63,998 nt of DNA from Psammoneis japonica (lineage: Eukaryota). Under the pieces are notes generated by a model, which saw only the letters and a list, made by a program, of their open reading frames with translations, searched no databases and was not told the origin of the DNA. The position numbers were made by a program, and so were the translations under genes. Below are positions 2,707-43,079 of the stretch, in pieces; within the stretch, counting starts at the first letter, position 1; the number at the start of each line of letters is the position of its first letter. Where the stretch lies: assembly GCA_008632985.1 (NCBI GenBank), contig QPGO01000307.1, positions 1 to 63,998 on the forward strand, read 5' to 3'.

Positions 2707-3096
2707 GACGTGTTCCAGGTCTAGGTGGGACCTCGCACTACTGAACTGTGACATCGATAGTTTTTTGAATCACGTCGTATGTCGCGCACGTAGATTTCTA
2801 CGTGATTTTTTCGATATTTTGTGTCATTTTACGGTACACTTATTGAGCGATCCGTCCAAAAACTTTTGACATTTATTGTTACAGCGCGATTCTATAATGT
2901 CTTAAGAATCGCGTAGGGCAGGTGCATTTGCAAAAACGTCGAGTGGTAAGAGGCATAATTGTACCACAAACTTGGCCGTTTATTTGATGTTGAAGATAAA
3001 TGTATCCATTAATTAAATTCTCGTACTACGGAGCTCGCACGTAGAATTCTACGGGCCCAATGTCACACGGAGTCCCACCTAGGGCTGGAACGCGTC
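2707..3096 (+). mobile_element. MITE, 390 bp, family 1 copy A (least mutated)
   Basis: TIRs GACG(T/C)GTTCCAGgtCTAGGTGGGAC ... GTCCCACCTAGggCTGGAACGCGTC. 4-bp TSD CTCA at 2703-2706 and 3097-3100. Colinear with 42690-43079. Confidence 0.92.
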
Positions 3097-4895
3097 CTCA
3101 GGCAAATCTTTGCTTGTTGTCTTTCTTGAGCACTGTGAGCCAAAGTGCCAGGCTTTGCAACAGCCACTCCATGTTTGACTGCACATGCTTGCTGAGCCAT
3201 GACCTGACATCTGTCACAGTCCACTCAACATTTTCATCATGCCACACAACAGATGGCCATTTGCCATCTTCTTCTGTGCAAACACATGAGCAAGTGTGTT
3301 GCAGATTTCTTTGTCAAGATCACTGGAACACTCCAAATCCACTTTTTCATCCCCCACAAGATTTGAGCACACTTGTGGGCATGCATCTTTGCAACACTTT
3401 CAAGGCACAGTGACGTGCAATCATCTGACAAAGCTCAGAGGATCAATCCTGCTCCAAATGGCCCACTTTGCTTTGAGTCCCACATCATGCCAAGGACATC
3501 CATTGGCCCCACATCTGACAGAAGAAAAAATGCAAACTGTTGTTCCTTCCCTTTTTGCTTGCTGAACAACAACAAAGTCTGCTGAAATGCCATGAGAAGA
3601 AATGCAACACTGGACTCAGCAAATTCAGCCAGCAACTGTGCCAGATCTCACAGGTCCAGCAAAATGTCTTGCACCTTCTCTGATTTGTGAAAGTGGCTGT
3701 TTGTGTTGTGTGCAAATGTCTCTGCTTTTTAACGCCACCTTTCATTTTTTGTGGCACCTTCACAGCTGCACTGATGAAGCAAAAGTGAAAGCAAAAACTC
3801 GCTGTTGTCAAGCTTTTGCAAGTTGGGCAAGATGACATTTAAAGTTTTTTTGTGCTGCAGGTGCGCTGCACATTTCCAAACCCTTTCGCATCAAATTTGC
3901 CTTTTGTCAGAGTGGCGCAACAAGCAAAAGAGTGAAAAGAGCTGTCTTTCCTGGTGTGTTGGAAGAGAGTTGTTCAGAGCTGATTGTCGCCAATGGTGGA
4001 AGCTCTGCAGGGAAAGCTGCGCGCCGGATTGTTCGCACTTGACATGACTGCCAACCCAACAAGCTCAGCAAAAATGGCACTCAAGGACTCTTCACTCTCT
4101 GTGTTTGCATTGCCAGTTGCACTCATGGGAACAATGGAGGAAGAAGAGTTGTGCCTCAGAGTCATCAATGAGCCACTTGGGCACACTGTTGTAAAAATGT
4201 TTGCACCTCATTGAGCGCTGGGGATTGTCAAAAAACAATTCAGCAAAGCAAATCAACTGATGAGCCATTTGGCAGAGGTTGTGCAGGTGCAGGTGCCTCA
4301 ATTTTGTTTGTGTGCTGTTTGCAGAAAAACTTTCTTGGGGTTGATGTTGCTCAGCAGCTTCTGTTGCACTTGCTCCTGTGACACACAGATGCTGTGAAGA
4401 GAAGCACATTTTTGCTTGCCACAAAGTCCAGTGAAACACTTGGCACAAAATGTGCGCACATGGGGGTTGGCACTGTTGTCCTCTGCATTGTCTGTTGCAG
4501 CTCAAAGCACATGCGCACCTCTTCTTTGATCTGGTTGAAACATCTTGAAGGCAGAAATCATGAAAACCCTGCGCAGCATGTTTTGTTGAACAGACAACTC
4601 TTGGTGAGGGCTGGCAGACAAGGTGACAAGAAATTGGCATGTGTCTCCATCACAATTTCCAGCACAAATGAGGAGGCAGGCAACTCCACGAGGCCAAACT
4701 CAGCAAAAAATGTCAAAGCCTCTCTTTGTGCAACAAGTCAAGTGATGAAATTGATTTGGCATGACACACTGCAAAGTTTTCCAAATGAAGCAGCAGGCTT
4801 GAAGTGACAGCAGCAAAAAAGAAGAAAAGCAAACAAAGAAAATGAAAACTCAAGCCGACAATTTCATGAAAATGGGCCATTTTCAAAAGAAGACA

Positions 4896-5155
4896 GGCCT
4901 GTCCCAGCTCCAGGTGATCCACTTTTCATCACACGAGAGGCCGATTTTCTGCGCAGTTTGGCGCAATTGGCTCTTTCAATTTTGATCGTTTCGAAAATCA
5001 AAAGGTGAGTGCACACCCGAAAACACGTGCAAAGTGCACACTCACCCTTTGATTTGGCAAAAAACGGATTTGGAAAAAGTCAATTGCGCCAAATGCACAA
5101 ATTGCCAAATGATGGGAATCGAAACCGAGCGGAGCACCTGGAGCTGGAACAGGCC
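4896..5155. mobile_element. MITE, 260 bp, family 2
   Basis: TIRs GGCCTGTCCCAGCTCCAGGTG ... CACCTGGAGCTGGAACAGGCC. 4-bp TSD GACA at 4892-4895 and 5156-5159. Confidence 0.88.
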
Positions 5156-5298
5156 GACAGACCTCGTCCAGCAAATGCCTCAGCTGCACACTGCAAACAA
5201 GAAACCAGTGTGTGAAAAGCCAGTTTTGGGCTGTTGAGTCCCAGCTGTCATGGGTCTTGTCACAAGGCCAGCAAATCAACATGAAAATTTCCCAATCT

Positions 5299-5690
5299 GA
5301 CGGGTTCCAGTCCCAGGTGGGACTTTTTGTGACACATTTGCCCCGCAGAATTCTGCGTGCGAGCTCTGCAGTTCGCACTGTGGTCAATGGATGTGCTCAT
5401 CTTTGACACAAAACAAGGCAGCCAAGTTTGCAGCACATGCATCTCTGTTCGCACTCGAAGTTTTGGGCAGTGCGCCTGCCCTGCGCCATTCTCAAGACAC
5501 TTGAGAATGGCGCAGAAGAAAAAAATGTAAAAAGTTGTTGAATGGATCGCCTGACAATTGCACCATAAAATGATGCAAAATTTTGCCAAAATCACATAGA
5601 AATGCACATGCGCGACATGTGATGCAATTTAAAAAACTGTCGATGCCACAGTTCTTCAGTGCGAGGTCCCACCTGGACCTGGAACGCATC
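5299..5690 (-). mobile_element. MITE, 392 bp, family 1 copy B (inverted, diverged subfamily)
   Basis: Ends GACGGGTTCCAGTCCCAGGTGGGAC ... GTCCCACCTGGACCTGGAACGCATC. 4-bp TSD ATCT at 5295-5298 and 5691-5694. Reverse complement aligns to 2707-3096. Confidence 0.9.
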
Positions 5691-6189
5691 ATCTTTTGTT
5701 CTTCGAGTGGGCCGGTTTCTTGACAAGAAGAAGCAAATGTGAGAGAGAGATCCAACATTTTCTTGCAGCCCCACATCATGAAAAACCCTCTGCAACGTTC
5801 GAGACACACTCGTCAACCTGATCGACAAAAACCGCACCGCCTCGATGTGCTCTGTTTGCCATGATGACAGTTGGCCATGACTTTCTCTTGAGCGTTGTGC
5901 GCCCAGTGTTGTTGTGCACAAACGAGGCCAAACTGACGACAGGTCATTGTCGTTAAATCGTTTTTTCCGTTGAACTCTTTATCATTTTCCGTTGGGCATT
6001 AATGCCAATGTCATGGTTAAATACTCACATGTTTTACAGTTCTTTTGCCTTTCCGAAAATGAGAGAAGGGCATAACATGAAGGAGAAAGGGGACTATGTA
6101 CTTTAGTCGCAACTGACATAGTGAGGCGGATAATGCCCCGTTTTATTGACAAAAAATAATGCCCACAGCTTACATGATAAAGGCATTAT

Positions 6190-6783: not shown

Positions 6784-6856
6784 CTAGGGGCTTACTGTTG
6801 ATGAACAAGTCACAAATTTTCGCACAAGGGTGATGCAATTGTAAACGACCAATAAA

Positions 6857-12532: not shown

Positions 12533-13635
12533 TTTTTGTCTTTCTTCTTTCACATGATTTGGGCCAAATCCCCACTCAAGGAGTTGAGTCTCGGACACCA
12601 CACTTCTTTTAAAAGGATGCCAAGGGAGGGCACTGGGGGGTGGCAGCTGCGACTAACAAGATCTTGCATTTCGAGGAACCCCAAGCCACTCTGGCCACAG
12701 TTTTCTTGCACCAATTTCTCTGAGCATGCCACTTTGAGAAATTCAAAAGCTCAAATTGGCAACATGTCCAGGAGTGTGTGCGCGAGAGTTGCCGCTGCTG
12801 ATCTCCCACATCATGTGACTGGCCCTCAGCAACAAACCAGGACTGTCATCACAACAAAACACAAGAAGAAGCCATGCTCACAATGTGAAAGCAGGAGTGG
12901 AGCAGGTTGAATTGATGTGCCAAAAGTGGGAGCCAATTTTTTCAGCAATGTGGGATGTCCAAATGATGGTCAGAAAAGTGACAGGCCAATGTTGCACTTT
13001 TTGTTTCGCATGTCAGGGAAGGTGCTTGCAGAGTGGTCCACAGAAGGAGACTTCTGTCTGAAACCTTGTTGTTTTGAAGAGCTCAACTTGGCATTGAAAT
13101 TCTGCAACATGATGGTTTTGCATGGCAAAACTTGTGTTCCCTGCTGTGGCTCCTGGCTGTGGCCACAGCTTTGTTTTTCTGCTTTTGTCTTTGTTGTCAC
13201 TTTTGCATGAACACTTGTCTCGTGACTGTTGCCTGTTCTTTTTTCATTGCTGAAGAGCCCATGAGAATGTGTGGCAAGAAGCAACTTGTCACAATGACAT
13301 GATCTCAGTCCGCTGTCAAGTGGCTCACTGATTTGATCCCCTTTTGCTCTTGACTCAAAGCCTCCAACTTTGGAGCAAACACCTGGAAAATTCATGTGTG
13401 CACAGCCAACTCCAACTCTGAAACTGGTCCCAGCAAGGCTCCACTCACATCCATGGTGGCCTCCTCACTTCTCCCCAGCTTTTTCAATGTTGTGACTTCA
13501 GCACAGAGAACACTGGATTTGTCAACTTTTGGTGGTTTTGCTGCTTCAACACCAGTGGAAGAGAAATCGAGATTTCAGGCTCGCATCAGGAACGTGTGAG
13601 CCGATGCCGTTTCGGAAGCCCACTCTCATGGAATG
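12533..13635. other. TpA-depleted degenerate domain B (probable pseudogene/repeat relic)
   Basis: Only two TA seen in ~1.1 kb, CpG reduced, no intact recognisable ORF. Confidence 0.8.
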
Positions 13636-14023
13636 TAGTCAAGACTGTTTGTCAAGATTGGTGGAAGCGAAAGATCGAATTCAAGCCAGCAAGTGACACG
13701 TGAACGTGTTCAGATAAGATGGAAGCTGCTTCGGAAGTTGGTTTGGTTGCTTCAGCACCAGCGGAAGAGAAATTGACATTTTAGGCTCGCGTCAGGAACG
13801 TGTAAGCCGATGCCATTTCGGACACCAACTATCAATAAAATAAAAAATGACAAACCAGCCAATGCATTGTAATTTTCAGATTATCTTTTTGTTTTGCGTG
13901 TGCTAGAACTCTTGTTGACATCGTGGTAGCCCTTCTGCCGCTTGTGCTGCGAGAACTTTTCCTCCGAGGCCTACTCTAGCTAGAGATAATAGAGGCAGTA
14001 TTTCTAGTTTGAACAAAATACAG

Positions 14024-17589: not shown

Positions 17590-18196
17590 TCTTCAAGCGA
17601 TTGTACAGGACCAACAGGAACAAAACAACCTCGATGAGAACAATAATGATGGGTAGGCTAGGGTGATTCAGAAAAAAAATGGTCCGTTCCGACAACGAAA
17701 TCCCAATCCCTTCGTCTGCGATGCATGATGATGTGTGAGATGCGATGCGCCGCGTGGTCGGTGTGCGTCAGTCCACGAAAACTCATGACCCATTTTCAAT
17801 TTCTACAGCGACGCAAGCAAACAACGGCTTCATGAGAGCTCAATACGACTGCGCAAAAGAGATCGTCATCGCTTAGCATATATCTTCATCTTGATCCATT
17901 TTTGGAATGGTCAGTAACTTGTACTGCATGTTTCTGACGAGATACGGCTTTTTGTTTGGCTTTCTCAGCCGCAGTTCGTCATGGTGTTCTGCGCACTCAG
18001 TATTTACTCAGCACCCGTGACTCACGTCACAATCGAGTCACGCATGCTGATGCCTCCGCTCACATTTTCTGTGTTTCTCTTTCTGATCTTTCGACTTGTT
18101 AACCGGATAGGTGCAAGTCAATGAATCATCTTGAATAAGGTTTCCCTGATATGTCAATGAACCAATGAAAGGGAGATCGACAAAGAATAGATAATC

Positions 18197-19183
18197 ATGG
18201 GTGATACCATGAAGAAGCAAGACAACCCGTTGTTGTCGAATGCTTCTTCTGTCCACGAAACGTCGGCATCCAACAGTGTTAGTCGTCAAGTTGTAAATTC
18301 TCTTTTAGCCGGATCCATGGCTGGAATTACATCGACGCTCATGGGACATCCCTTTGATGTGCTGAGAACCAAAATGCAGTCGCATGATACGACCGGGAGT
18401 AGTCGACAACAAGTGTTGAGTAGAACCATTCGTTTTGGTGGTGGAGTTCGGGCTCTGTATACTGGCTTGTCTCTTCCATTGGCGGCGCAAGCTGTTTACA
18501 AGGCAACGGTATTTACCGTAAACAAATCGTGTCAACAATTTCTGTTGAGTTGGCAAGGGCCTGACTATCAATTGTCACTCTTTGACTTTTTTGTTTGCGG
18601 TGCCATGGGTGGCGCTGTGAATGCGGCACTCTTTGTCACGCCCGTCGAGTTTGTACGCAACCAGCTGATTGCGCAGCATTCCAAATTAACTCATGACGCG
18701 GCTGCTGCAAAGAACACTTCTGTTTCGCCTCTGTCCCAATTGTCGAGTCCACGAGACGTGTTGCGCAACACGTTTGTTCGAGAAGGCCTGTCTGGATTGT
18801 GGCGTGGAGCAAGTGTAACTGTTGCTCGCGATTCTCTGGGCTGTGGTCTTTTCTTTTATGCCTTTCATTCTTCTCAGCAATTTTTACAAGACTCTTCCCA
18901 GAAACCAAAGTTTGGATATACGTTAATCTCCGGAGCGATTGCCGGATTAGGATTTTGGGTGGCGGCCCTGCCCCTCGACACGGTCAAGACGCTGGTTCAA
19001 AACGGATCAGCACCAACCGCTCGAGCAGTAATAAGAGACTCGCTTGAAACCGTGGGTTTCTGGCAAACCCTGTTGAGGTCTTGTCGTGGATGGCAATTTG
19101 CCTTTGGACGAGGTGCTCCCGCAGCAGCCGTTACCTTGGGTACCTATGATATTTGCTATCGAGCTCTGGAAAATGGACAATGA
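18197..19183 (+). CDS. Mitochondrial carrier (SLC25) family protein, paralog 1
   Basis: Three carrier signatures PFDVLRTKMQ, PVEFVRNQL and PLDTVKTLVQ, plus LYTG/LWRG motifs. Confidence 0.92.
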   Translation: MGDTMKKQDNPLLSNASSVHETSASNSVSRQVVNSLLAGSMAGITSTLMGHPFDVLRTKMQSHDTTGSSRQQVLSRTIRFGGGVRALYTGLSLPLAAQAVYKATVFTVNKSCQQFLLSWQGPDYQLSLFDFFVCGAMGGAVNAALFVTPVEFVRNQLIAQHSKLTHDAAAAKNTSVSPLSQLSSPRDVLRNTFVREGLSGLWRGASVTVARDSLGCGLFFYAFHSSQQFLQDSSQKPKFGYTLISGAIAGLGFWVAALPLDTVKTLVQNGSAPTARAVIRDSLETVGFWQTLLRSCRGWQFAFGRGAPAAAVTLGTYDICYRALENGQ

Positions 19184-19802
19184 CATGGCTACGTTGATCA
19201 TCGCAACTTATTGGGTCTAGTGATTGAAGATTGTCCTGTGGCACTTTCACGATTTTCAAGCGATTCCCAAAGTGAAGTCAGCTCGGACTAGCTACATGCA
19301 TTTGTTTGGACAGTCTCTTACTTGTAAGGCAACTTTCCGATTGTTGAATCCGGGAAACACCAGCTACAGTACTTCAATGGGTCAGATGACTAACAAGAGA
19401 TTGTCAGTGCTCCGACATGTCCCATAACATCGGTACGCGGAGCACCGCTCCTTCACAGAAACGACAAAGTGCAACTCACAGTAACTCTCACACAGCACCA
19501 CCTGTTAAACGAAATTTATAAGACCTCGTTTGGTCAGAACATTGACCTGTGTATGTGTTCGTCGCGGGGTTGCATGTAGGATGGCACCATCATAATTGGC
19601 CCGTGGACCCTTAGTTTGCGAATCAGTCCGAAGGGGTGCCTTCCTCTGCTCCTGCACGATGTGTTTGTTGTTTGGATGTTAAATCGACAGGAGTCTGGTG
19701 CTTGATGCGACATCCGTTAGTGAAGATTCCCCGAAACGTCTGTGTGAGCACATGTAGTTTTGTCACGGCTTTCCAAGGGACTCAAGCCTTCAGCCACATT
19801 TA

Positions 19803-21657
19803 TTCTTCCCCACCCACCCACCCACCAGGCTGAGATGGTGCCTTGGGTGCAAGGGTGTCATGGACAGAGGCCTTTGTTGCCCACCTCTTTCATTGTGTCC
19901 TTCTTGACCGATCGGGGCAAAACTCTGTTGCTCTTTTGCATTTTGCCACTGGGTCGTTTTCACTGGTGAGAATGAAGCAGCAGCACAGGGCACCCATGAT
20001 TGGAGAAGTTGTGTGCAGTGCATGGGACCCCGCCAACTTCCATTTGCACCCTCCTGGGCACCTCTGATTTTGACAGACTGGCGCAATCAAGATTTTCTGA
20101 GGAGGAGTGTGGAGCATTTTCTTTGCTGACAGCCAAAGCCACAGCTTGGGGGGTGGCAGGCCACAGCAAAAGGCAACCCCACCATGCCACAACCACACAC
20201 TGAGATCCCAAATGTCCAAATCAGAGAGGAGGCACACTTGTGTCACAGTTTTTTTGCTGTGTGTGTGCTCCCTTGCATGTTGTGCAATGCTTGACAATCA
20301 CTCATGCTGTGCAATGGCTGACCTGTCATGCAACTGACTGCCAGCAGCAGCCATTGAACAAAACAAGAAGCAGTGGTGCACAAGAGCAGAAGATGAGCAC
20401 CAGAGGCAAAGGTTTTGTGGAGATTTCAAAAAAACACTGAGAAAGAGCCCACATGGAGCAAAAGGAAGCAGTGAGAAAATTTGACCCAAAAAGTCAGTGA
20501 TGAAGCCATCAAGCAAAGAAAGGGAAGGGCAGGGGGCAATGACAAAGGCAAAAAGGAGGGTTGGCAAATGACGGCAAAACTGTGATTTGATGTTTGGCCA
20601 ACTTTGGTGGTGGTGCAGCCTGTGAAAAATTGGCAACTGTGTGTGCATCAGCTCCAAGAAGCAAATTGTGCCAATTGAAAGTGCCAAGAGCAAACAAAAA
20701 TGTCTGCACAGTCAAAAACAAAGAAAGGTGTGTGTGCAAAAACAGACTGGCAACAAACTGTGCAAGGATGCCAACCATCAGTCACTGAGAGCAAACTGCA
20801 ATTTAATGAAAAGATCAAAATTGCATGGACAGCACCAAATTTTTGTTGTGTGGGCAAAGTTGGCCCTCTGTTGACAGACAGCTGATTGTCAAGAAATGAT
20901 GAGAGATGTTTGGGGCGATGCGTGTGAGCAAATCGAGCAGTCAGAGACCTCATGGAATGTTGGGGGGCACTGATGTTGACCAGTTGCACACAGACGTGCA
21001 TGGCAAAAAACTGCTGCACATGAGTGTGTGCAGCACCTGATTTGGACATTTGGGGAGATGACCTTGAGATGTTGGAGGGAAAAACAGGGCCCCGCAGACT
21101 GTGCGCAGCTGTGGAGGCATTTTTCACTGCTGCTGCTGCTGTGCTGCTTGCATCTCTGCCTGCTTGCAAGCCAAAAGAGGGCTGGCACAGATGGGCTGCA
21201 AGCAACAATGACACATGCATGGCTCGCTGCCACTCACAGAGTTTGCACACCGGCGCTGTCCTCTCTCAACGCCCCAGGCTTGGATGCACGGCCAACTTTT
21301 GGAGCTCGCTGGAAGATGGTGTGCTGGTTGTGACTTGGAAAACAAAGTGTTGCATGCCATGGTGGTCACATGTCAGTGAGCTGTCTCAAAGCCACTTCAA
21401 AGTGGGTGTTTCCCTGTCGAGGTGTCACGGCCCTTGGCTGGCACTGACGAAAGACTCGCGCGCCACGCACACACCCCTTTCCCACCTGCTTGACCCAAAC
21501 CATCTCAACCATTGGATCGAAATGGTCACAGAGATCAATGCTGCTCAACTCAATGATGGTTCAGTTGAGAGAAACACACGCAGCCAGCCGCCGGCAGCCA
21601 CCGTGTTGGGAAACCATGTGGAATGAATCATTTTTTTCTTTTTTCCATCAGTGTGCT
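19803..21657. other. TpA-depleted degenerate domain C
   Basis: Essentially one TA (20804, in AATTTAAT) in ~1.85 kb. TG/CA-rich. Confidence 0.85.
20207..21054. mobile_element. Non-autonomous TIR element, ~850 bp, decayed
   Basis: CCCAAATGTCCAAATCAG ... CTGATTTGGACATTTGGG with imperfect inverted similarity extending ~65 bp. Flanked by GAGAT at 20202-20206 and 21055-21059. Confidence 0.78.
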
Positions 21658-21893
21658 GTACAGCACCTGGCTGGTGCGGTAAGTCAGTCACGGAATGAAA
21701 TCAGTCATTTGCAGTTTTGTCGATTTTACACATTTCACCGTATTACAAAGTCGCGGGTCATTTTTACGTGATCAACTTCCAGTCGCTTCCAGTCCCGCTT
21801 GAAACTCAACACCAAAAAATGCTTCCATCTTGTTGCACCTTTGAGGAGGTTTTCACCTCAGTTTCGAGCTTTGACTGTTCCTTATTCATCAGT

Positions 21894-23000
21894 ATGATGG
21901 TCTTCCTCATCTTGCTCTTCTCCTCCCTTCTGGCCTCGATAGCATCTGCCCAGCAGAAGTACATTCTACAAGCTGAGGATGCTCCACACGAAGCTACTTG
22001 GCTCAGTTGGCCTCATCACTATACTTACGGGAAACGCTATCGAAAAGAGATTGAGAAGACTTGGCTTCAAATGACTAAAGCCCTCGCGCAGAGCGAAAAA
22101 GTCTATATTGTGGCATACAAACGTCGAGAGCAACGTCGCATCACGAAACGACTAAGAAACAGCAAAATTCCACTTGAGAGCATCAATTTTGTGATACAAC
22201 CTACCGATGATACATGGATTCGTGACAACGGCCCAATGTTTGTTGCGAATGCAGAAACAGGTGCGCCGGCCATTATTGATTGGGGATTCAATGGATGGGG
22301 AGGGGATGCACCATATAGCACGGACGACAAGCTTCCGGAGGGCGTGTCGAAGCAACTGAACGGATTAGCTTATGAGAATCTCAACTCTGTTGTTATGGAA
22401 GGAGGGGCAATTGAAGTGGATGGTAAGGGTACAGTCTTGGCCACCAAGAGCTCCGTCTTGAAGAATGGGCGAAATTCGAGGCTTTCCAACTCTCAAGTGG
22501 AAGAAGCCATGATGAAGTACTTGGGTATTGAGAAGTTCATTTGGCTGGATGGAAGGTTTGGCGGTAAAGGGGATATCACGGACATGCACATTGATGGATT
22601 TGCCCGATTTGGGACGGTCGACACAATCGTCACCATGTCGCCTGCTGACCTCCGATACTGGCAACTATCCGAGTCGGATATCGACAAGCTAATGTCAGCC
22701 AGCGACAAAAACAACAAGCAATACAAGTTTGTCTACCTCCCCTTGACAAAGAGCAATGTCAAGACCACCTATGGGAAGAGCTTGGGCTACAAGGGTTCGT
22801 ATGTCAACTTTTATGTGGCCAACACGGTGGTCCTCATGCCAAGCTATAATGATCCTAACGACGGCATCGCACAGAGGCAACTGAAAGCTCTCTATCCAAA
22901 CAAGCGTGTGGTGAAAATTGACGTGCGCAATCTCTACAAAAATGGCGGCATGGTTCATTGCGTAACGATGCAGCAGCCCAAGGATCCTGGAATGCAATAA
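21894..23000 (+). CDS. aguA: Agmatine deiminase (PAD_porph family) with N-terminal signal peptide
   Basis: Motifs HEATWLSWP, DDTWIRDNGP, WGFNGWG, MEGGAI, TDMHIDG, SYVNFY and GGMVHCVTMQQP (catalytic Cys). Intronless, with hydrophobic leader MMVFLILLFSSLLASIASA. Confidence 0.92.
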   Translation: MMVFLILLFSSLLASIASAQQKYILQAEDAPHEATWLSWPHHYTYGKRYRKEIEKTWLQMTKALAQSEKVYIVAYKRREQRRITKRLRNSKIPLESINFVIQPTDDTWIRDNGPMFVANAETGAPAIIDWGFNGWGGDAPYSTDDKLPEGVSKQLNGLAYENLNSVVMEGGAIEVDGKGTVLATKSSVLKNGRNSRLSNSQVEEAMMKYLGIEKFIWLDGRFGGKGDITDMHIDGFARFGTVDTIVTMSPADLRYWQLSESDIDKLMSASDKNNKQYKFVYLPLTKSNVKTTYGKSLGYKGSYVNFYVANTVVLMPSYNDPNDGIAQRQLKALYPNKRVVKIDVRNLYKNGGMVHCVTMQQPKDPGMQ

Positions 23001-26575: not shown

Positions 26576-27629
26576 TTTAGGTGGCGCGCACATGCCCCTT
26601 TTCGCAGAAAAAATAATTTTTTAATGCTTTATTGAACACCGTACATATTTATTAAAATTGATCACATCAATGGCTTATAAGTAAAATAAACAGAATAAAC
26701 TCGAACAAAAACAAACAGCCAAACCGGCCATGGCTTTCAGTGACCATGACGGCCCACTTTTTTCAGCCTTATGGAAAATTGAATGTCATGACCAGGATCT
26801 CCGTATTTGATATAGTCTGTGTCATCAACAACAATAGTGAAAATGCTTGTTGAAGGCTGCAGCGCGGCACAATAATGCCAAATCTGTCAGCAACAACAAT
26901 TGAGCCTCTATTCACTCACAATTTGCCTCTAAGGACCATTTCTTTTCTATTACCATGTGTGTTTCCTCAATATATTCGACTGATTCAAGTGTATCAATCG
27001 TTTATGCCTTTTAAACCGTGAAAAATGGTCCGAAGTCGACGCCATTGCGTGGGCTGAGCTACGTACACTTCTTCTCACGTCGTCCTAAACTTATTAATCA
27101 ACGAATGCTTTATTCGATCCGTTGAGTGTAACTCGTATACGCGTATGAAAACAAAATATTAATTATGCTATGTTAAAGACTTAATTTATATATATTAATA
27201 ATATTTTATATGTTTCTTGTTACATTAAGGCATATATAAATCGCTCATCGGAAAATTCGAGCTCCCAACTTACGGTACAATTTAGCGACTAATAACTGAG
27301 TCCATCAACAGTTTCGAATACATGGGTACACGCACAAGACAATTCTGTATGTACCCATAACAACACATTTGTAAATTGTTATGTTTTTACTATCGAAAAT
27401 GGTGCCGCAAGTGTGGACCGCGCGTTTCATGCAAAAAGGGTCATTTTTTCGCGCGTGAGTGCACCCAAGTCTGGAACAAGTCACCAGCTCGATTCCGAGG
27501 TGACGGTGACCAGATGCAAAAAATCGACACTGCTCATCGAATGGAGTGCGCTGTGCAACGAAACCCCGGCCAGTCGCACGCTGCTTTGCACCTCCGACAA
27601 GAACAGCATGAGACATGCAGTTTGCCTTG

Positions 27630-28100
27630 ATCTGGAGGTGGGCCACCACGCACACCATCAGAGTTGCAAGCACGTTTGAAAACTCTGGTGGCCGACTCCA
27701 CCGCAGCAGCAGCAGCAAGAAAGCAAACGGCAAAAATCCAAACGATGTCCCAATCGGCAAAGGTCCTGGGAAAGGTTTTGATCCACCGCATCTTGACAGT
27801 GCTCAGCCTCATGCTGACAGATTTGGCTCATTCCCACGTCCCAGACTTTCCCACCTGCACATTCCTTGAAGCCAACTGATCCACCATGAGTGCCATTGTT
27901 GCAACCCACAAAGACATCCTCCGAGAGATTGACACCTTTTGAGGTCTTGCTGATGCCACCATGAGAAATAAAAAAAGGGCTGTCAGACAGATCAGGGTGT
28001 CCACAATGTGAGCGGGTGCAGAGAGGTCTTGTCAAAACCCTTTGTCCCAGCATGACGAAAGAAACCAATGCCATGAAGTGTGGCAGAGAAAACTCAAAAT
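27630..28100 (-). pseudogene. 1,3-beta-glucan (callose) synthase, GT48 catalytic-region fragment
   Basis: SFVMLGQRVLTRPL..RSHCGHPD...GGISKTSKGVNLSEDVFVGCNN...DVGMSQI...RLDFCRLLS matches the GT48 consensus (GQRVL, HYGHPD, RGGISKASK, NLSEDIFAG, GRDVG). Continues after a frameshift as FSNVLATLMVCVVAHL. Confidence 0.88.
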
Positions 28101-31100
28101 CCCTGCATGCATGTGATCCACGAACACCACGGCTGGCATCATCAACATGTTCAACAAAGTAAAACATCAGGCCATTTTGCGGGGAAGAATCTGCTTGTGG
28201 ACCGAGAAACAAGCAGAACACGTGCCGGGCTGCTAACGTCTGTTTTGGAAACACACCGAACACGCACCGCGACGTCCAGAGCTCGTCTCAAACACGCCAA
28301 AGGTGTCCCACACATCAGCCCCTTTTATCCACATTTATTGTGAAACGATTGAGGCACAGGTCAAGGGATGAGAGGAGGGAAACAACAACAAACTCGACGA
28401 AACACACCGGAATGACGACAACAGCAGCAGACTCACACACCGAAGGAATCGAAATCGATGTTCTTGCGTGGAGTGGCACTTGTAAAAATGGCGCCAACAC
28501 GTCATGGCACTGCAGACAAATGCCGACAACATCCCGAGTGACTCACCTTGTGAAAAACGGGGACAACGATGGTGGACGCGACGCAAATTCGCCATGGTGG
28601 CTGCGCAAATTCTGCGTGGAATTTCTCGTTTTTGTGCCAGCGACCAAAAAAATCGCACAGTGCGATTTTTTTAAGCTGTGCCAGTTGGCCTGGTGCAGCG
28701 ACATGTTGCGATCTGTGGGAGGTCTTCTCTGTCTTCTTCCGTGCCACTTGCAGACCTCCCAGTTGGGAGTGGCATCGTCTTGCCACATGTGTGTCCCGGG
28801 TCTTGCACAGATGCCCCATCGCGGTTGATCCACAGCATCCGTCAATCATTGCATGCATTGATCACATGACTCACATCACAACATTGCAAACTGCACAATG
28901 GTCGATTGTTGTCAGTGTGACATTGGCATCTTTCAACAACATTTGCACAGCAGCACCACCAAAGTGCTCCCATCATCAAGGATGTCATGTTCCAGGAGCT
29001 CCAGGTGGGACCTGGCAAAGCAGCGCCTGCTCTCAGCACACAGAAGAGAGTTGGCTGTGTGTCATCTGGTCAGGGGGGCATCTCTTGAAGTTGTGTGGAT
29101 GGTGTGAAGAAACAAGAGTGTGCACTCAATGAGCGCTGGAAACTGTCTGGGAAGCTTGGAGAGTGTTGAGATCTTGGCTCCTCAAGGTGACGAAGCAGGC
29201 ATCGAAGTGGATGCTGGAGTCTGGGCATCAACTTTGAAGGGGGCAGTGTCAACAAGGCCCCAGCTGTCGCACCTCAGTTGGGTTCCTGGGCAGAAATGGA
29301 GGTGGTTGGCACCAACAGCGATGATGACAGCATCTTTTTTGGCATTGAAAGCTGTGGCCATTGCTTTCAAAAGTGACTGTTGTGTCTCAGACATTGCTCA
29401 CGGCTTCTCTGGGCATGGGCTTGGAGAAAGCAGCTTGATCTGTGAAGGGTCCAATGCGTTTCAGGTCCACGGCAGTGTTTGCCTGTGGCTTGATGACCTT
29501 GTCAATGAGCCAATGGTGCAAAATTGTGCTGACATTGTTGTGGAGACAGGGTGGTGTAAATCCATCTGGTGTGGCTGATGTGCCCAGGATGGCATCAGAG
29601 TGCATGCCATTCGGGCAAGCATGTGCATCTTTGCATGCAGAGTTGAGGCTGTGTTCAAAAAACGATGACATCTTTGTCTGAAATCAACAGCTTTGGTTGA
29701 CTTGTTGGTCATGGCAGTGTGGTGCAAAAAATGCTGTGCAGAGCTCTGGTGTGTGCTCTGCAATGCGCTGTTGGCTGGAGCCACAGACAGTGGGAAAATT
29801 GGCAAGACGGAGGCAGTCATGGTGTTTTCTCTCAATGAAAAAAGGAGCTCTGCAGCTGGCACAAACTTTGCTTTGCACCGGCACTTCAATGACAGAGGAA
29901 TGGCATGGTGATGAACAGACAGAGGGTCTGTCAGCACAATTCAATGCACACTGGGACAAAGATGATGACACAGTGCTGGTCAGAAAGAAAGCGAGTGGAA
30001 GCAAGAGAGGTCTGATGAGACCTTCTGCAATCTGTGTGTCCTTGTGTCTGTCCATTGGGTGTGTGACTGATGTGCATCACTGGCACACACTGCTCATGAC
30101 TCAGTGGGCTGACAGGCAGGAAGATGATGGCACAAAAGAAAAGCTTTTTTTCGACTTTGTTCTTGTTGACAGCTGGCCACTGTGCCTTTTCCATGAGTTT
30201 GTGTTTCAGTTTCCTGCCTGGTGTCTTTTCTTTGAGAAGGTGACCAGCAAGCACTTTTGGTCTGCCTGAGTTTGCTCTCGCTGCATTCTCAGATCATGTG
30301 CTTTTGTGTCACATCACCACTCAAACACAAACTGCAAGGGCAAGCACCCAGCTGGTTTGTGGCTTGCCTGTCACCCAAGTCAAGTGCTGGCAACATGGCA
30401 ACAAAACACCAAGAAGCCTTGAAAAGGTCTGAAAACAAGTTGTCCAGGGATGAAGTGCAGTGTGATTGCATCAAATCTTTGGGCAGTGCTGCTGGTTTCT
30501 GAAGGGTGAAAGAGATTGGCATTTTGTCAATGATTGAAGATGATGACTCTGCAGGTTTGCACGATGAACTCAAGGCCAGTTTGCAACAGCCCTTGTTGAA
30601 AGGTCAACCTCAATCTGCGTTTTGAGCAATCGCAGATCATTGTCACATTCTTTGCCAGTGCAGTGCCATGTTGTTGGACTCTTGAGGGACAATGACAAGC
30701 TGTTGAACTTGTGGCTGACATTGGAAGATCCAACAACACCATGTTTGTTGTGCCATCAAGGGCAAGTCCTCTTGCTGTCTGGTGTGCTGGTGTTTTTCTT
30801 CTTTTCTGTTGCTTTGCTCCAATGGTGTGCTTTCTTTTCCTTGAACACTTGTTGGCAATTGCAGGCAACAATGCATTGCAGCTCTCAAGACTCTCTCCCT
30901 GCTTGCCATTCTGGCAGCCCCAACTCAGGCATGTCCAGCTTCATTTCACATTTTTGGTTCTTGTGAATTGGAGGAAAGCGAATGTCTCCAGTTTTTGGAT
31001 TGACCCCCTTTTGCCACAGGCAAAAAAGAAACTGCCGCGTGGGAGCTGGGGGGAGTGGCTGCATGTAGAAGCTCACCTTCAAGGTCAATTTCTGTCACAA

Positions 31101-31349
31101 AAAGGCCTGTGTGGACTCAGTCACTTGACGGACACCAACTTCAATGAACATTGGCTTTTTGACTTGATGGAGGGCAAGGAATTGAGTGTTGCCCAGGACA
31201 ATGGCGCCCCAGTCAACTCCAACAGAAGCAGGCTTCATTGACAGCATCATGATGGGCTCAATGTGGACAAGATTCCTTGCAATCAAAAAGATGCTGTGAG
31301 CTTTTCCTGGAACCTTTTAACAAGGATGCCAAATTGCTTGCAGCTGGTG

Positions 31350-31960
31350 ATCCGGGACTCTGGACCATCAACAATTTTCCTCAGTGAGGAAGAGGTGGAC
31401 AGGATGACAGAGTTGATGCACGGGGTTGGTTGTGATCAAGGCATGTTTGGTCCATGTGCTGTCAGTGACCGAATCCCCAGATCATGTTCATTGTGAGAGC
31501 AACACCAAGGTGTGCTTCAAGATCTCTCTGGAGAGCATGATTTGTGAAGGTCCTTGCCAGTTCTCCACTCACAAACACGAGCCAGACCCCCAAAGATGCA
31601 ACCTCAGTGGCCGAAATCAGGGCTGGGTTCAAGAGCTTGTGGTGAACTGAAGTTGAACCTGAAGAACACCTGCAATTCCAGCATGCTTTGAAAGGCAGTC
31701 CTCCTGCATCTGCCTTCACAGCAATGACAACCATGCCATCTTGCTGGTGTGCTCTGTCGCTCAGATGGTGGCACATTGCTCTTCTTTCCAAATCTTGACA
31801 TTTTGATCACCCCCAAGAAAGGGACAGCGGCAACATTCCTCAGTTTGTGCAAGGATGGAAGTTGCAACACCTGGCCAACCATGCAGATCAGGCCCATCCG
31901 GAAAAGTGCTGGAGACTGCACCATGGCACTTTTTTCTGCAAAGAAGAAGTCCTTGGAAGT
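31350..31960 (+). pseudogene. Prolyl 4-hydroxylase-like 2OG-Fe(II) oxygenase relic
   Basis: Frameshifted fragments in the expected order: INNF/LSEEEVDRMTEL, QELVVN, ILLVC, DGG..FFPNLDILITPKKGTAATF.SL.KDG. Confidence 0.55.
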
Positions 31961-33965
31961 GTGGTCTTGTTGGAGGTGGAAGTGCAGGAGAAAGCACAAA
32001 GATCACTGTGATTTGGCTCAGCATCACCGGCTACATTGCCTGCAACAGCTGCATCACTGCCCGAGCTGTTTTTTGGCAGAACACCATGGTCAAGAAAAGG
32101 CTGCTGCCATGAAAACAATGGGGTTGGCATGCCCAATTCATGTGGGCAATTGTTTGGCATGTTGACTCTTGGAGAACAGGAGATCTTGAAATGGCTTGCA
32201 AAACTTTGAGCCCAATGACAAAACATGTCCACCAGAACCAAAGCATGAAGAAACAATGAGATTTTGATGTGGAGAGGGGTCACAGTGGGCCCAGCATCTG
32301 CTCAGAGAAGTTGAGATGATGGGGGGTGGACAAGGTTTGTTCGAAAGAACACAGCTGGACAAAATTTGCAATTTCAACCTTTGGTCTCATGCTTTGTGTT
32401 GGAAATTGGTGCTGTGTTGAAAGCAGGCAGGAAATGCACACTGGCTACCTTCATTTGAGCAATGTGTCAAATGGCATTTTTCTGTCTTCAGGTCCAACAA
32501 TGTTGCCAAAAGCTGACATGCTCACAACATGTGCAAGCATGAGAAGATGGAAAGCAGCAAGGCTCAGCAAGCCATTTTTCCAGCTTGAGTCACAGCCACC
32601 TTGGCAGCATCTCTGCCACAGTGACCTTGGCCAAGGGCTCCAAGCTCCAAAGTGACAGCAACACGGAGCAAGATCCAGCTCCACAAGAATCAGTGTTGAC
32701 AACAAGCACACATGCACTTGCTGCACAAAATGCTTTGCTGGTCAACAAAGCCAAGCTTCAGACTGCCATCCAGGAGCTCAAGTTTGCAGCTGCAGATCTT
32801 GAGCCAACCAGCACTGTGCTGGTGTGTTGGAAAAAATGAGGGCATTGTCAAAGTGCCAGCTGCAGCAAAAAACAAAATTGCCATGCTCCAGATTGTTGTC
32901 TTGCAGCAGCTGGCAAGGAGAACTTGGAATTTTGCATTGTGCACACAAGTCACTTTCTGAAGTGAGTGCTTGCATTGACTGCCATGGCCAGTCTCTTTCC
33001 AGAAAGAACAAAAAGTGCTCTGGAGCAAAATGAGAAAAAAGGAAGCTTGCTTCTCAAGTTGTGAACCTTGCTGAGTTGCAACTTGACAGCGCCACCACCT
33101 TGACCAATCAAAGCCAAGAGCAGGAGATTGGCAAAACAAAGAGCAACAGATCTGACACCTCAATGATGCTCTGGCACAAGAAGTGCAAGTTTCAAATCAA
33201 ACTCTGAGCATTGATCTCAGTCAGTTGTGGCTGCACAAAGTGCAGCTGCCAGTCATGTCAATTGGTTGAATGAGCAGATTTGAGACTTCAGAGAGGAGAA
33301 AAGGAGCTGCAGGTGTGTGTGCAATGGGGGGTGCTGTTCTTTAGATTGAGTCATGGGGTGGTCTTTTCTAATCACAGTTCACCAGCATTGATGGTTTGCT
33401 GCACCGCAATCCCATGGATGCATGAAGTGAGGTGTGCAGCACATTGCCACACTTTCATCTTTCCAACACCGTCACATCCGTCGCACATGTGTTTGGGTGT
33501 TGATGGGAGCTGATGTGCGGACGTGTGCACAACACATGCATGACTTTGCATGTTTGAGCACCATCATTCAGACAGCATTGTTGCCCTTTTTGTTGTGCAC
33601 AAACAGGGCACATTTTCAAAGAATGTTGCAAACTTTTTGATGGCATTGTCTGGTGTCATTCTGCACAACAAGTGTGGCACAGCAGCACACTGTCTTGATG
33701 CCAATTGGTGATCAGGGAATCACATCCTGGCATCAAACACAATCTCAACCAACCAGCCATGATGAATCCAGCAATGGCAGCATTGGAAATCACACCCAGT
33801 GGGTGCAGACAACTCCATGCTGTGACACCCAGTGCCAGGGGAGATTATTCAAGAAATCTGGACGAAACCTCTGCCTCCAAGCGCGCGTTGCCTGATCGTA
33901 CCGTACGCACTGTAGATGCCCTCTTTTCGACTTCTTCAGTTCCCGGAACTATGACGTGACACGCA

Positions 33966-38564: not shown

Positions 38565-38982
38565 ATCATCATCTTTGCCGGTAGTGGCAACTTAGCTACA
38601 ACTAATCTCTAAGCTAGAGCTCTCTCTACTAGAGTAGAGCTTTACTCTAGAGTAAATAGTAGTAGAGAGAACATATTACTTGTAGCAGCTTGTTAGTACC
38701 GGCACCGTAACACCGAAGGTTAGACTGAAGACGCGCAGACAGATTGACATAGTTTTATTCAACCCTTACATGACGGTATAAAAGTATTTATCTGAGTCGT
38801 GCGTGCGTTTCGAGCCGATCTTTCGCGCAAAAAACGCGCGAAATTCTCGCAACAGAATTCTTTCTCACAAAACAGAACGAATCGTCAGCCAGCAGCTTCT
38901 CACTTTTCGTGTGGAAGCAAAAAGAAACAGGCATGATTGGAGTTGACAAGCTGTTGATTTGTTTCTCTATTGACCCATCGTC

Positions 38983-39981
38983 ATGGAAAACAAGTCGATA
39001 ATTCCGTTACGTCAGCCTCCGACAAGGAGAGTGACAATCACTCGTCACATCACGGCGGCGGCAGCACATTCGAATCATCATCATGCTCGTCATGCTGGTA
39101 TTGATGCATACAAGAGAAACATTATGGCTGGAAGCATGGCTGGAGTAACATCCACGAGTTTGTTTTATCCATTGGATGTGCTTCGTACCAAAATGCAGTC
39201 TTCTGGTAAAAAACGTACGCCGCTACGAGAATTCTTTACCAAGACGATTCGACGTGGCGGCGGTCTCCAAGTGTTGTATACGGGCCTGTCTCTGCCACTG
39301 TCGGCACAGGCCGTGTACAAGGCGACGCTCTTTACAGTCAATGGTGCTTCCAAGACGCATCTGTTGGAATACAAGCGGCAAGTGCATGGCAAGGATTATC
39401 AATTATCACTGCAAGACGAATTCATGTGTGGAGCTCTGGGTGGTGCCGTGAATGCTGCGCTCTTTGTCACGCCCGTGGAGTTTGTACGCAACCAGCTAAT
39501 TGCTCAGCAACCGCGTACTGTAGCATCTGGTCCGATTCAGGTGGTAAAACGCACCCTATACGAGCAAGGAATTGCGGGTTTGTGGCGTGGAGCCGCCGTT
39601 ACCGTCACGCGCGATGCGTTGGGATGGGGCTTTTCCTTTTATGTCTATCATTCGTGCCGTGCCCATCTTGAATCAAAATACAGGGATGCGGTGGATCCAA
39701 ATGCAATCACAATAGTTTCGGGTGCCATTACGGGTATTAGTTTCTGGTTGGTAGCCTTGCCCCTGGATACAGCCAAGACGTTGGTTCAGAATGGATCTGC
39801 TCCGTCGGCAAGGGTTGCCCTTCAAGAATCGTTGCGTGCCAGGGGTCCGTGGAGAACCATGCTTCGGTTCTGTCGAGGATGGCAGTTTGCGTTTGGGAAA
39901 GGAGCACCCGCTGCTGCAGTGACTTTGAGTACATTTGACGTTTGTTCTCGGACGATTTCAGAATATAGATGGATAGAGTAG
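38983..39981 (+). CDS. Mitochondrial carrier (SLC25) family protein, paralog 2
   Basis: PLDVLRTKMQ, PVEFVRNQL and PLDTAKTLVQ. Clear paralog of 18197-19183. Confidence 0.92.
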   Translation: MENKSIIPLRQPPTRRVTITRHITAAAAHSNHHHARHAGIDAYKRNIMAGSMAGVTSTSLFYPLDVLRTKMQSSGKKRTPLREFFTKTIRRGGGLQVLYTGLSLPLSAQAVYKATLFTVNGASKTHLLEYKRQVHGKDYQLSLQDEFMCGALGGAVNAALFVTPVEFVRNQLIAQQPRTVASGPIQVVKRTLYEQGIAGLWRGAAVTVTRDALGWGFSFYVYHSCRAHLESKYRDAVDPNAITIVSGAITGISFWLVALPLDTAKTLVQNGSAPSARVALQESLRARGPWRTMLRFCRGWQFAFGKGAPAAAVTLSTFDVCSRTISEYRWIE

Positions 39982-41059: not shown

Positions 41060-41200
41060 GTCAGGTGGTTGGGAACCAAAGGGCAGCTGTCGCAAGCATC
41101 TCCAATGCGCCATTGCCATTGCTGTCAGCCTGGTCAGGATTCAAAACCAAGGGGCAGTTGTCCCTGTCATTAAGAACGCCATCACCAGCAGCGTCCCTGA
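41060..41200 (-). pseudogene. Thrombospondin type-3 (Ca-binding) repeat relic
   Basis: DAAGDGVLNDRDNCPLVLNPDQADSNGNG, then after a frameshift IGDACDSCPLVPN. Confidence 0.7.
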
Positions 41201-42236
41201 GCTTCAAAACAAAAAGACACCGCAACCTCCATTCTGCCCCTTCATCATAAAAAAGAGCATTTTGCTGCAAAGCTTGCACGCAGCATTCTGCAGGCCCAAT
41301 GTCACAGGGAGTCCCAACCAGGATTAAAGCCCATCAGCCGCACGAATTTTTCAACATGCCCTGACAGCAATCACAATTTTGCTGAAGTTTTGAGCTCTTC
41401 CAAAAAATTGCACCACTCATCACTGGGAATTTGTCAATTTTTTAAGAAGTCCCCACGAACCCCAATGTCCTCAATGGCCATTCTCAGAATGCAAACAACA
41501 TGTGTGTGCCAAATGAACCATGCTGATTTGTTCTCTGAGGGACACACTTTCAATTGCCGACCAGCCGACCCGCCGACCCGCCAACCCACCGACTCACTGA
41601 CCTGCCGACCCACTGACCCACTGACCCACCGACCCACCAACACACTGACACACCAACACACTGATTGACTGACTGACTGACACAAAAAAGTCTGCAATCA
41701 CCAACCACCGAGTGGTCAATCACAGTTAATTTGTTGATTTTTTAGGAAGTCCCCACGAACCCCAATGTCCTCAATGATCGTTCTCAGAATGCAAACAACA
41801 TGTGTGTGCCAAACAAACCATGCTGATCCGTTCTCTGAGGGACACACTTTCAATTGCCGATCGGCCACCTGACCGACCCACCAACCCGCCCACCTGCCAA
41901 CCCGCCAACCCGCCCACCTGCCGACCCGCCGACCCGCCAACCCACCGACCCACCGACCCGCCGACCCACCAACAGACTGACACACACCAACACACCAACA
42001 CACTGATTGACTGACTGACTGACACAAAAAAGTCTGCAATCACCAACCACCGAGTGGTCAATCACAGTTAATTTGTTGATTTTTTAGGAAGTCCCCACGA
42101 ACCCCAATGTCCTCAATGATCGTTCTCAGAATGCAAACAACATGTGTGTGCCAAACAAACCATGCTGATCCGTTCTCTGAGGGACACACTTTCAATTGCC
42201 GATCGGCCACCTGACCGACCCACCAACCCGCCGACC

Positions 42237-42326
42237 NNNNNNNNNNNNNNNNNNNNNNNNNNNNNNNNNNNNNNNNNNNNNNNNNNNNNNNNNNNNNNNN
42301 NNNNNNNNNNNNNNNNNNNNNNNNNN
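42237..42326. other. Assembly gap (N run)
   Basis: Run of n. Confidence 1.
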
Positions 42327-42689
42327 GCACAAATGACACACAGAGATTGTGTTTCCATGTCTGCACATGAAATCTTGATCGTTGATTTAAAAGCAACCAA
42401 CCGACCCACCAACCTGCCGACCCGCCGACCTGCTGACCAACTGACCCGCTGACCTGCCGACCCGCTGACCCGCTGACCCGCCAACCCACCGACCCACCGA
42501 CCCGCCGACCCACCGACCTGCCGACCCACCGACCCGCCGACCTGCCGACCTGCCGACCCGCCGACCCGTTGTTCTCAGAATGCAAACAACATGTGTGTGC
42601 CAAACAAACCATGCTGATCTGTTCTCTGAGGGACACACTTTCAATTGCCGACCGGCCGACTGACCGACCCACCAACCAACCCACCGACT

Positions 42690-43079
42690 GACGCGTTCCA
42701 GGTCTAGGTGGGACCTCATGCTGCTGAACTGTGACATCGACAGTTTTTTGAATCACGTCGCATGTCGCGCACGTAGATTTCTACGTGATTTTTTTGATGT
42801 TTTGTGTCATTTTACGGTGCACTTGTTGAGTGATCCGTCCAACAACTTTTGACATTTTTTGTTACAGCACAATTCTACAATGTCTTAAGAATCGCACAGG
42901 GCAGGTGCATTTGCAAAAACGTCGAGTGGCAAGAGGCACAATTGTGCCACAAACTTGGCCGTTCATTTGATGTTGAAGATGAGTGCATTCATCAATTAAA
43001 TTCTCGCACTGCGGAGCTGGCACGCAGAATTCCATGGACCCAATGTCACACGGAGTCCCACCTGGGGCTGGAACGCGTC
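42690..43079 (+). mobile_element. MITE, 390 bp, family 1 copy C (partly hypermutated)
   Basis: Same TIRs and colinear interior as 2707-3096. Flanks GACT/AACC are explicable as a GACC TSD after CpG decay at each junction. Confidence 0.92.

Follow-up and report, generated by a model that had tools for sequence, protein, structure and literature searches.

Why do copies of one transposable element that lie on the same contig differ so strongly in their content of TA and CG dinucleotides? The 63,998-nucleotide stretch of contig QPGO01000307.1 analyzed here, referred to throughout as the window, carries three full copies (A, B and C) of a short non-coding transposon, which the initial annotation had read as a time series of a cumulative and probably ongoing mutation process with TA lost faster than CpG. 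As suggested by our comparative analysis, the copies very probably differ mainly through two directional processes that acted on them to different extents. The earlier interpretation stands in part: the direction of change and the loss of TA before CpG are supported, whereas clock-like accumulation and ongoing activity are not.

Pairwise comparison of copies A and C revealed 36 differences among 390 aligned sites. At 20 of them copy A carries TA and copy C either TG (8 sites) or CA (12 sites), and at a further 7 a CG of copy A faces TG or CA in copy C. One difference is reversed (TG in A, CG in C) and lies within the left terminal inverted repeat (TIR) of A; the remaining ones comprise 5 other transitions and 3 transversions. 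The chance that at least 20 of 36 differences occur as transitions at the bases of TA is very small (p < 2e-8), even if all substitutions are taken to be transitions. Copy C lost TA significantly more often than CG (20 of 29 versus 7 of 28, Fisher p-value 0.0014). This recount agrees with the earlier tally of about 20 of about 29 TA and about 7 of about 28 CG; the 'about 6' other changes reported with it, on the contrary, are in fact 9. The TA/CG totals given previously were borne out as well (29/28 in A, 8/21 in C and 4/16 in B), including the observation that copy B is poorer still in TA than copy C. About 70% of TA has been stripped from copy C and about 93% from copy B. Along copy C the outcomes TG and CA form 11 runs versus 10.6 expected, and no strand-coordinated clustering of the two outcomes was seen in this copy. 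The TIRs read as had been described: copy A carries CTAGG in its two arms, whereas copy C carries it in the left arm and reads CCTGG (plus strand) in the right one. Copy A does keep its TAs amid TA-free DNA, the sole TA in positions 2272-3730 outside A being located at 2652.

Copies A, B and C belong to a very abundant non-coding TIR transposon, a miniature inverted-repeat transposable element (MITE). The element is 390 bp long, has a TIR of ~25 bp and makes 4-bp target duplications, and thus combines the TIR, duplication, small size, lack of coding sequence and high copy number of a MITE. Along with the three full copies, the right end of a fourth one (fragment D, TIR CCAACCAGG) was recovered in the window with MAFFT and nhmmer. 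Copy B represents a divergent subfamily with 76-77% identity to A and C. A second MITE-like element, E, carries the TIR GGCCTGTCCCAGCTCCAGGTG, which resembles that of A, B and C. Perfect 4-bp target duplications surround copies A and B and element E, and no intact one was found at copy C (flanks GACT/AACC). For the abundance estimate, the contigs of one sample were aligned to positions 2600-5800 at a likeness of at least 80%, which gave 5,083 contig pieces; three runs, all of this sample, were available, of which X2 contributed 1 and X3 13 pieces, all on the MITE. The summed contig depth amounted to ~270,000 over copy A compared with 72 for unique sequence, which puts the A/B/C family at roughly 3,700 copy equivalents at this likeness, and element E reached ~450 copy equivalents in the sequencing run. 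All family states and majorities quoted below rest on the best-supported 40 of 152 variant rows of this pile-up. A strict TIR pattern had no matches in metagenome contigs. A looser pattern returned 83 metagenome and 27 prokaryote-genome stretches, which were discarded as chance matches since the nhmmer profile of A/B/C matched no fetched locus.

TA-free islands and the T-A-Y flank rule

The composition of the window is bimodal, with genic DNA alternating with gene-free islands of 1-6 kb (Table 1). The observed/expected ratios (o/e) of genic DNA are 0.57 for TA, 0.98 for CG and 1.17-1.18 for TG/CA; those of the islands are 0.02, 0.19 and 1.82-1.83, with 18 TA left in 11.8 kb. When the window was divided into 117 segments of 500 bp, a TA o/e below 0.1 was found in 24, all of which lie within gene-free islands; the region at 25.2-27.3 kb, poor in open reading frames (ORFs), has normal TA. 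Segments with intermediate TA keep a normal mix of flank classes, and the island edges are therefore sharp. No TA-enriched DNA was found anywhere in the window. None of the 117 segments is CG-poor (o/e < 0.4) with a TA o/e above 0.35, while TA-free segments with a CG o/e of 0.7-0.8 do occur, and TA loss without CG loss was observed around copy C and at 28501. Along with the counts of copy C, this confirms that TA is lost before CpG. Because TA-free segments that keep CG exist, the losses of TA and CG are separable processes and not one mutation with two rates.

The islands are single copy at a likeness of at least 80% (depth 72), so that duplication is not evidently the trigger. Affected are the MITE copies B and C, element E, a pseudogene of the host, and unique island DNA devoid of Pfam matches to transposable elements (TEs) or viruses. 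A Pfam scan of the islands (103 stop-free frames) gave this gene fragment, a piece of a 1,3-beta-glucan synthase, as the sole accepted match; matches to L71 and TSP_3 were disregarded, being below the curated cut-off. Island frames stay open for 80-250 codons, and 119 frames of at least 80 codons were counted in the ~20 kb scanned. Since TAA and TAG are impossible without TA, every island frame is open, and these long frames are composition artefacts rather than genes. This is of practical importance: TA-free islands give long spurious frames, affected genes read Cys or His for Tyr, and gene callers could mistake frames such as that of the glucan synthase fragment for Cys-rich proteins. At the small island of Table 1, the two members of the divided repeat pair are 85% identical; the one inside (13533-13628) has 0 TA and the one outside (13739-13834) has 3, and 2 of their 14 differences are TA versus CA/TG.

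The TA dinucleotides that survive in the islands are not a random sample. Half of them (9 of 18) are flanked as Y-TA-R (Y, pyrimidine; R, purine) and none as R-TA-Y, versus 263 (16%) and 501 (30%) of 1684 in normal DNA (p-values 8e-4 and 3e-3); in the 24 most depleted segments the corresponding counts among residual TA are 13 and 0 of 20. The gain of TG and CA by flank class fits a target A in 5'-T-A-Y-3'. After subtraction of the share due to CG loss, R-TA-R went almost wholly to R-CA-R and Y-TA-Y to Y-TG-Y, an estimate that is rough, the ancestral islands being represented by genic DNA. Of 28 outcomes at R-TA-R and Y-TA-Y sites, 22 are those predicted by the rule (p-value 0.004), namely 9 of 12 in copy C, 8 of 11 in copy B and 5 of 5 for the family majority. 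TA loss in copy C likewise depends on the flanks (R-TA-Y 6/6, R-TA-R 7/8, Y-TA-Y 5/10, Y-TA-R 2/5). The altered base is the A in T-A-Y or equally the T in R-T-A, between which the flank rule cannot tell. The rule accounts for the convergence of independent copies, for the predominance of Cys among the replacements of Tyr codons (TAY), and for the ability of a palindrome in the element to stay symmetric after a hit, as in copy B.

Direction of change, timing and competing explanations

The direction of change is not settled by the three copies alone, and evidence outside the element was sought. Within the element, the left hairpin palindrome CACGTAGA...TCTACGTG is intact in A and C but broken in B, an observation that speaks for TA and CG as the ancestral states. 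The right hairpin palindrome was rejected as a polarizer, being perfect both in A (TA form) and in B (CA/TG form) and hence without discrimination.

The glucan synthase fragment consists of two high-scoring segment pairs (HSPs) in different frames, covers only residues ~1476-1914 of homologues of 2000-2300 residues, and judging by its sequence is most likely a pseudogene. It shows a CCCCC run at a stretch rich in F and Y in the homologues. Not one of 95 aligned homologue tyrosines is kept in the fragment (tblastn with 8 full-length homologues, which are not independent of each other). Of the 16 tyrosines of homologue P0254, 9 align with Cys, 2 with Phe, 1 with His and the remaining four with Val, Asn, Met and Gln, once each; the six consensus-Tyr columns in a MAFFT alignment with 20 homologue segments read 4 Cys, 1 Phe and 1 Gln. 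Overall, Tyr is absent from the 154 residues of the fragment and Cys occurs 15 times, versus 5.1% Tyr and 0.9% Cys in the homologues. Conserved Arg residues are replaced by Cys, His, Trp or Gln, and HYGHPD of the solved yeast glucan synthase reads HCGHPD in the fragment. As a control, two genes in normal DNA retain 14-19 of 17-21 homologue tyrosines. Because these residues are conserved in the homologous proteins, the changes TAY->TGY/CAY and CGN->TGN/CAN are polarized.

Mass balance and the element itself agree with this polarity. The summed frequency of YR dinucleotides is 0.2396 in the islands and 0.2410 in normal DNA; relative to normal DNA the islands have changed by -0.0386 in TA, -0.0438 in CG and +0.081 in TG+CA. 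CA and TG are each one step from TA and two steps from each other. At 2815/16, 2962/63 and 2997/98 copy A has TA, the family majority CA (64, 55 and 64% of depth) and copy C TG, with TG also in copy B at two of the three; at 3001/02 TG is found in A and C and CA in B, and TA makes up 43% of the family depth. Copy A itself is unbiased in composition (o/e: TA 0.93, TG 0.91, CA 1.07, CG 1.53), with no skew of the kind left by repeat-induced point mutation (RIP). Together, the pseudogene, the mass balance, the three-state sites and the unbiased copy A support the conclusion that the changes run from TA to TG/CA.

These observations would be accounted for by a regionally targeted hypermutation, in which A:T->G:C transitions on either strand turn TpA into TpG or CpA with a preference for the A in 5'-T-A-Y-3' (equally the T in R-T-A). 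In parallel, a slower decay of CpG to TpG/CpA would proceed, presumably by deamination of 5-methylcytosine. The two processes would have left the gene-free islands of 1-6 kb around the copies almost devoid of TA and stripped of most CG, and would have converted Tyr codons of the dead glucan synthase fragment to Cys and His; copy A would have entered its island after the stripping and stayed almost untouched. The signature, its direction, its restriction to the islands and the flank rule are shown by the sequence. A T-A-Y target would be in keeping with TadA, which naturally acts on U-A-C in the anticodon loop of a tRNA, and with the Y-A-C preference of early adenine base editors. An enzyme is probably responsible, most likely a DNA adenine deaminase of the TadA/ADAT kind, by analogy with the one proposed for the chlorarachniophyte Bigelowiella natans (see below). 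The hypermutation may be aimed at silenced or selfish DNA and might still be active.

Several points weigh against this explanation. At each of the 7 TA sites of copy A that have pile-up rows (2740, 2758, 2815, 2895, 2956, 2962 and 2997; the other 22 of 29 are without rows), TG or CA forms the family majority, at 55-88% of depth. TG or CA stands in both B and C at 16 sites, and at 12 of these the two copies agree (expected 8; two-sided p-value 0.08), so that plain parsimony with B as outgroup makes A derived there; this agreement follows from the flank rule, a rule partly learned on the same copies. Copy A is not pristine, showing private letters at 2860 and 2875, TG at 3001/02 and a CG->TG change in the left TIR. 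The 103 stop-free island reading frames gave no Pfam domain of a TE or virus. The satellite unit flanking copy C is without TA, so that C cannot be placed in mutated DNA. Finally, oxidized thymine (5-formyluracil) can pair with G and would give the same symmetric signature, and a target T that mispairs in this way fits as well as a target A. The initial annotation had named a TG/CA family consensus, with copy A as the derived one, as the finding that would speak against it. Such a consensus was formally found at 7 of 7 TA sites, but the test is flawed, because directional hypermutation turns the majority state into the derived one.

With regard to timing, copy A was inserted after most TA loss of its island, as had been proposed: copy B (4 TA) and element E (0 TA) of the same island are mutated and copy A (29 TA) is not. 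Either A arrived after the stripping, or that island is no longer targeted. The idea of a time series stands insofar as the copies show graded loss; it fails as a clock, the copies differing in exposure and not in age. When background changes were assigned to lineages with B as outgroup and the family pile-up, ~3-4 fell to the A lineage and ~5 to the C lineage since their common ancestor. Those of A are transversions at 2860 and 2875 (where the family has another letter at 95% and ~100% of depth), one possible transition and one CG->TG. The corresponding TA losses number at most 1 in the A lineage versus 20 in the C lineage. Such similar background change with so unequal TA loss means that TA loss depends on exposure, i.e., on place, episode or time since insertion. 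The claim that the process is probably ongoing is not supported as stated; the evidence for it consists of two TA/CA variant sites (Table 1), which may be allelic. They are the only differences of a 1,852-bp run contig from the window over unique island DNA, where ~23% of possible transitions are of the TA/CA kind, so that two of two would occur by chance with a probability of ~0.05. None of the 15 of 25 joints listed skips 2707-3096, a result that is uninformative on an empty allele of copy A.

Alternatively, the process may be the same and the series not have arisen in situ: C would have inherited most of its TA losses, and B some, from source copies that had been mutated before, and the copies would sample subfamilies rather than time at their loci; we consider this a minor though appreciable possibility. 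Part of the TA losses of copy C may indeed come from an already mutated source copy, as C shows the majority state of the family at 4 of the 7 rows that cover TA sites of A (2740, 2758, 2895 and 2956), where single states reach 83-88% of depth. The similar background change in the A and C lineages fits inheritance too, and so does the flank of C, which shows no local hypermutation beyond the satellite's own lack of TA. On the other hand, TG in C differs from the majority CA at the three sites 2815/16, 2962/63 and 2997/98, and copy B shows private CG and TA changes relative to the pile-up, the CG->CA/TG ones being at 5596, 5608, 5620 and 5623. Since the flank rule makes copies converge, agreement with the majority is weak evidence. 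The window copy of element E also has CG->CA/TG changes relative to its family majority (4933, 5000 and 5050).

Mutation without targeting is improbable. A genome-wide bias would remove TA and CG everywhere, selection would keep them in genes, and the islands would be old unconstrained DNA, as might be expected from the fact that all islands are gene-free and the sole gene piece inside one is dead. However, copy A retains 29 TA within an island, the ORF-poor region at 25.2-27.3 kb is TA-normal, the island edges are sharp, and the genes (TA o/e 0.57, CG 0.98) bear no sign of silent-site depletion.

The reverse polarity is more improbable still. A RIP-like C->T change at CpA on both strands would have made the TAs of a derived copy A from ancestral CA/TG, the TG/CA majority being ancestral. 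The family majority at the 7 sites and the agreement of B and C speak for it, as does the perfect palindrome CGCAGAATTCTGCG in copy B and fragment D where A has CGTAGAATTCTACG. Yet copy A has no RIP skew, and sites with majority CA and TG in both C and B can be reached only through TA or CG. Both the pseudogene and the unique DNA around the copies changed in the opposite direction, TA-enriched DNA is absent from the window, and the agreement of B and C as well as the preserved palindrome would also result from the flank rule.

Selection that keeps islands free of TA and CG for some function, such as avoidance of a nuclease or insertion target, would explain how nearly absent TA is (18 in 11.8 kb) and is highly improbable, since the mass balance and the Tyr->Cys replacements show conversion of pre-existing sites, transposon copies decay in a graded fashion and the residual TA obey a mutational flank rule.

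Features and genes of the window

Table 1. Transposon copies, TA-poor regions and other features located in the window (positions of the whole stretch; strand given where assigned)
Feature	Positions	Strand	Remarks
MITE copy A	2707-3096	+	essentially unmutated; target duplication CTCA at 2703-2706 / 3097-3100
MITE copy B	5299-5690	-	near saturation; target duplication ATCT at 5295-5298 / 5691-5694
MITE copy C	42690-43079	+	intermediate; inserted in short-period satellite
Fragment D, right end of a fourth copy	41256-41339	+	nhmmer E = 1e-11
Element E, second MITE-like, related	4896-5155		target duplication GACA; between copies A and B
TA-/CG-depleted island	835-5954		contains A, B and E; unique part 3070-4920 single copy (contig depth 72)
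Small TA-free island	12654-13636		edge divides a local repeat pair
TA-free island	19801-21659		ends 40 bp upstream of the agmatine deiminase frame
Largest TA-free island	27391-33846		TA o/e 0-0.03, CG o/e 0.04-0.3 over 29-33 kb
TA-poor satellite region around copy C	41443-43252		CG normal, o/e ~0.6-1.1
TA-free, CG-poor stretch	47276-48710		includes an N gap
1,3-beta-glucan synthase gene fragment	27395-28287	-	low-coordinate edge of the largest island; Pfam E = 4e-26
Variant sites	4192 and 4322		4192: window TA, contig CA; 4322: window CA, contig TA

The satellite array at 41300-43600, which hosts copy C and fragment D, has an 8-bp sub-period and longer units of ~300-340 bp. On its plus strand TG is well above CA (o/e ~2.1 versus 1.3), and CG is normal.

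Outside the islands, the window is a eukaryotic scaffold with long exons that encodes a Brr2-type helicase, a class I tRNA synthetase, mitochondrial carriers and a formate dehydrogenase. The nearest named homologues of the formate dehydrogenase are those of the diatoms Pseudictyota (80% identity) and Attheya (78%), identical matches being absent, and another ORF belongs with two Atlas clusters that are commonest in Bacillariophyta. By these similarities the host would be a diatom or a close relative, not Bigelowiella. Two mitochondrial-carrier paralogues (18191-19183 and 38974-39981) lie 20.8 kb apart in DNA of normal composition and share 72-80% nucleotide identity in pieces. The agmatine deiminase gene (21699-23000, plus strand) has bacterial-type best matches at no more than 61% identity (Lysobacter and others), and may have been acquired from bacteria.

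So far, the single account of TpA-specific hypermutation is a 2026 preprint on one chlorarachniophyte, and a near-complete signature in a diatom-like genome would show that the phenomenon is not limited to one alga. The question would thereby become testable in a group with genetic tools and many sequenced genomes, and the T-A-Y flank rule limits the range of candidate enzymes. Transposons, dead genes of the host and anonymous DNA between genes are shown to be among the targets as well. Tentatively, and with less than even confidence, we suggest that diatoms might have a dedicated DNA-editing defence, chromatin- or RNA-guided and independent of CpG methylation, in which most likely a TadA/ADAT-like adenine deaminase would hit T-A-Y and remove every TpA from silenced islands, transposons and dead genes. 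Bigelowiella would share this system, as an old trait of the stramenopile-alveolate-rhizarian (SAR) lineage that went unnoticed in published algal genomes. In that case the MITE family, with its thousands of copies, would offer an internal calibration of rate, flank rule and targeting.

Comparison with known systems

Fungal RIP resembles the process in its directional, dinucleotide-specific transitions that degrade repeated or selfish DNA and leave compositional islands beside normal genes. Its chemistry runs the other way, since RIP changes CpA to TpA and thus raises TA and lowers CA/TG, which is the exact reverse of the window. The TpA excess and CpA/TpG deficit of RIP were found nowhere: the islands and copies B and C have the opposite skew and copy A has none. 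Diatom repeats are CG-methylated, and decay of methyl-CpG would fit the CG->TG/CA change in copies B, C and E and in the islands, whose CG o/e is 0.19, but would account only for the smaller, slower part of the pattern.

Hyper-editing by ADAR and editing by APOBEC/AID in animals share with the window the deaminase-type clustered transitions aimed at foreign or repeated nucleic acid. APOBEC, however, changes C and not A, and in contrast to both ADAR and APOBEC the TG and CA outcomes of copy C alternate at random without strand-coordinated clusters. ADAR, whose preferred 3' neighbour is G, acts on double-stranded RNA, whereas the changes described here are in DNA, fixed in single-copy regions and a DNA transposon, and show a 3' pyrimidine preference. 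ADAR also favours U before the edited A, as stated in the preprint on B. natans (Mettrop et al., bioRxiv 10.64898/2026.01.13.699255).

The closest known case is the TpA hypermutation of B. natans described in that preprint. In mutation-accumulation lines of this alga, A:T->G:C changes occurred only at TpA in integrated viruses; 230 of 231 mutations in an integrated giant virus and virophage were of this type, at a rate of ~6e-7 per site per generation. The de novo rate was about 1000-fold above background and only in some lines, 124 TpA-poor clusters were detected genome-wide, and an ADAT2-like deaminase was proposed (10.64898/2026.01.13.699255). A full-text literature search found TpA-specific hypermutation for B. 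natans only and returned no diatom report, and a term search of the preprint's main text gave no 'CpG', 'context', 'trinucleotide', 'MITE' or 'diatom'.

The two systems differ in several respects. The host of the window is diatom-like and not a chlorarachniophyte, and the targets, proven in B. natans to be an integrated giant virus and virophage, are here unique gene-free islands, MITEs and a pseudogene. Depletion is partial in B. natans (TpA rho 0.45) and near-complete in the window (TA o/e 0.02). Neither a trailing CpG loss nor a flank rule, as visible in the window, is a topic of the main text on B. natans. Mutation rates have been measured in B. natans, whereas the process in the window is read from its sequence signature.

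The two systems also agree in several features. Changes in both are only of the TpA->TpG/CpA type, as seen in the window from the A-C differences, the island composition and the Tyr->Cys/His replacements of the pseudogene. In both they are confined to particular regions with ordinary sequence elsewhere, which in the window means islands versus ordinary genic DNA. TpA depletion is accompanied by a gain of CpA and TpG, in B. natans in clusters of 1-kb windows, and selfish DNA is among the targets in both. The exposure-dependent TA loss of the MITE copies matches the episodic, region-bound behaviour described for B. natans. The process in the window is a further case of this very recently described kind of hypermutation.

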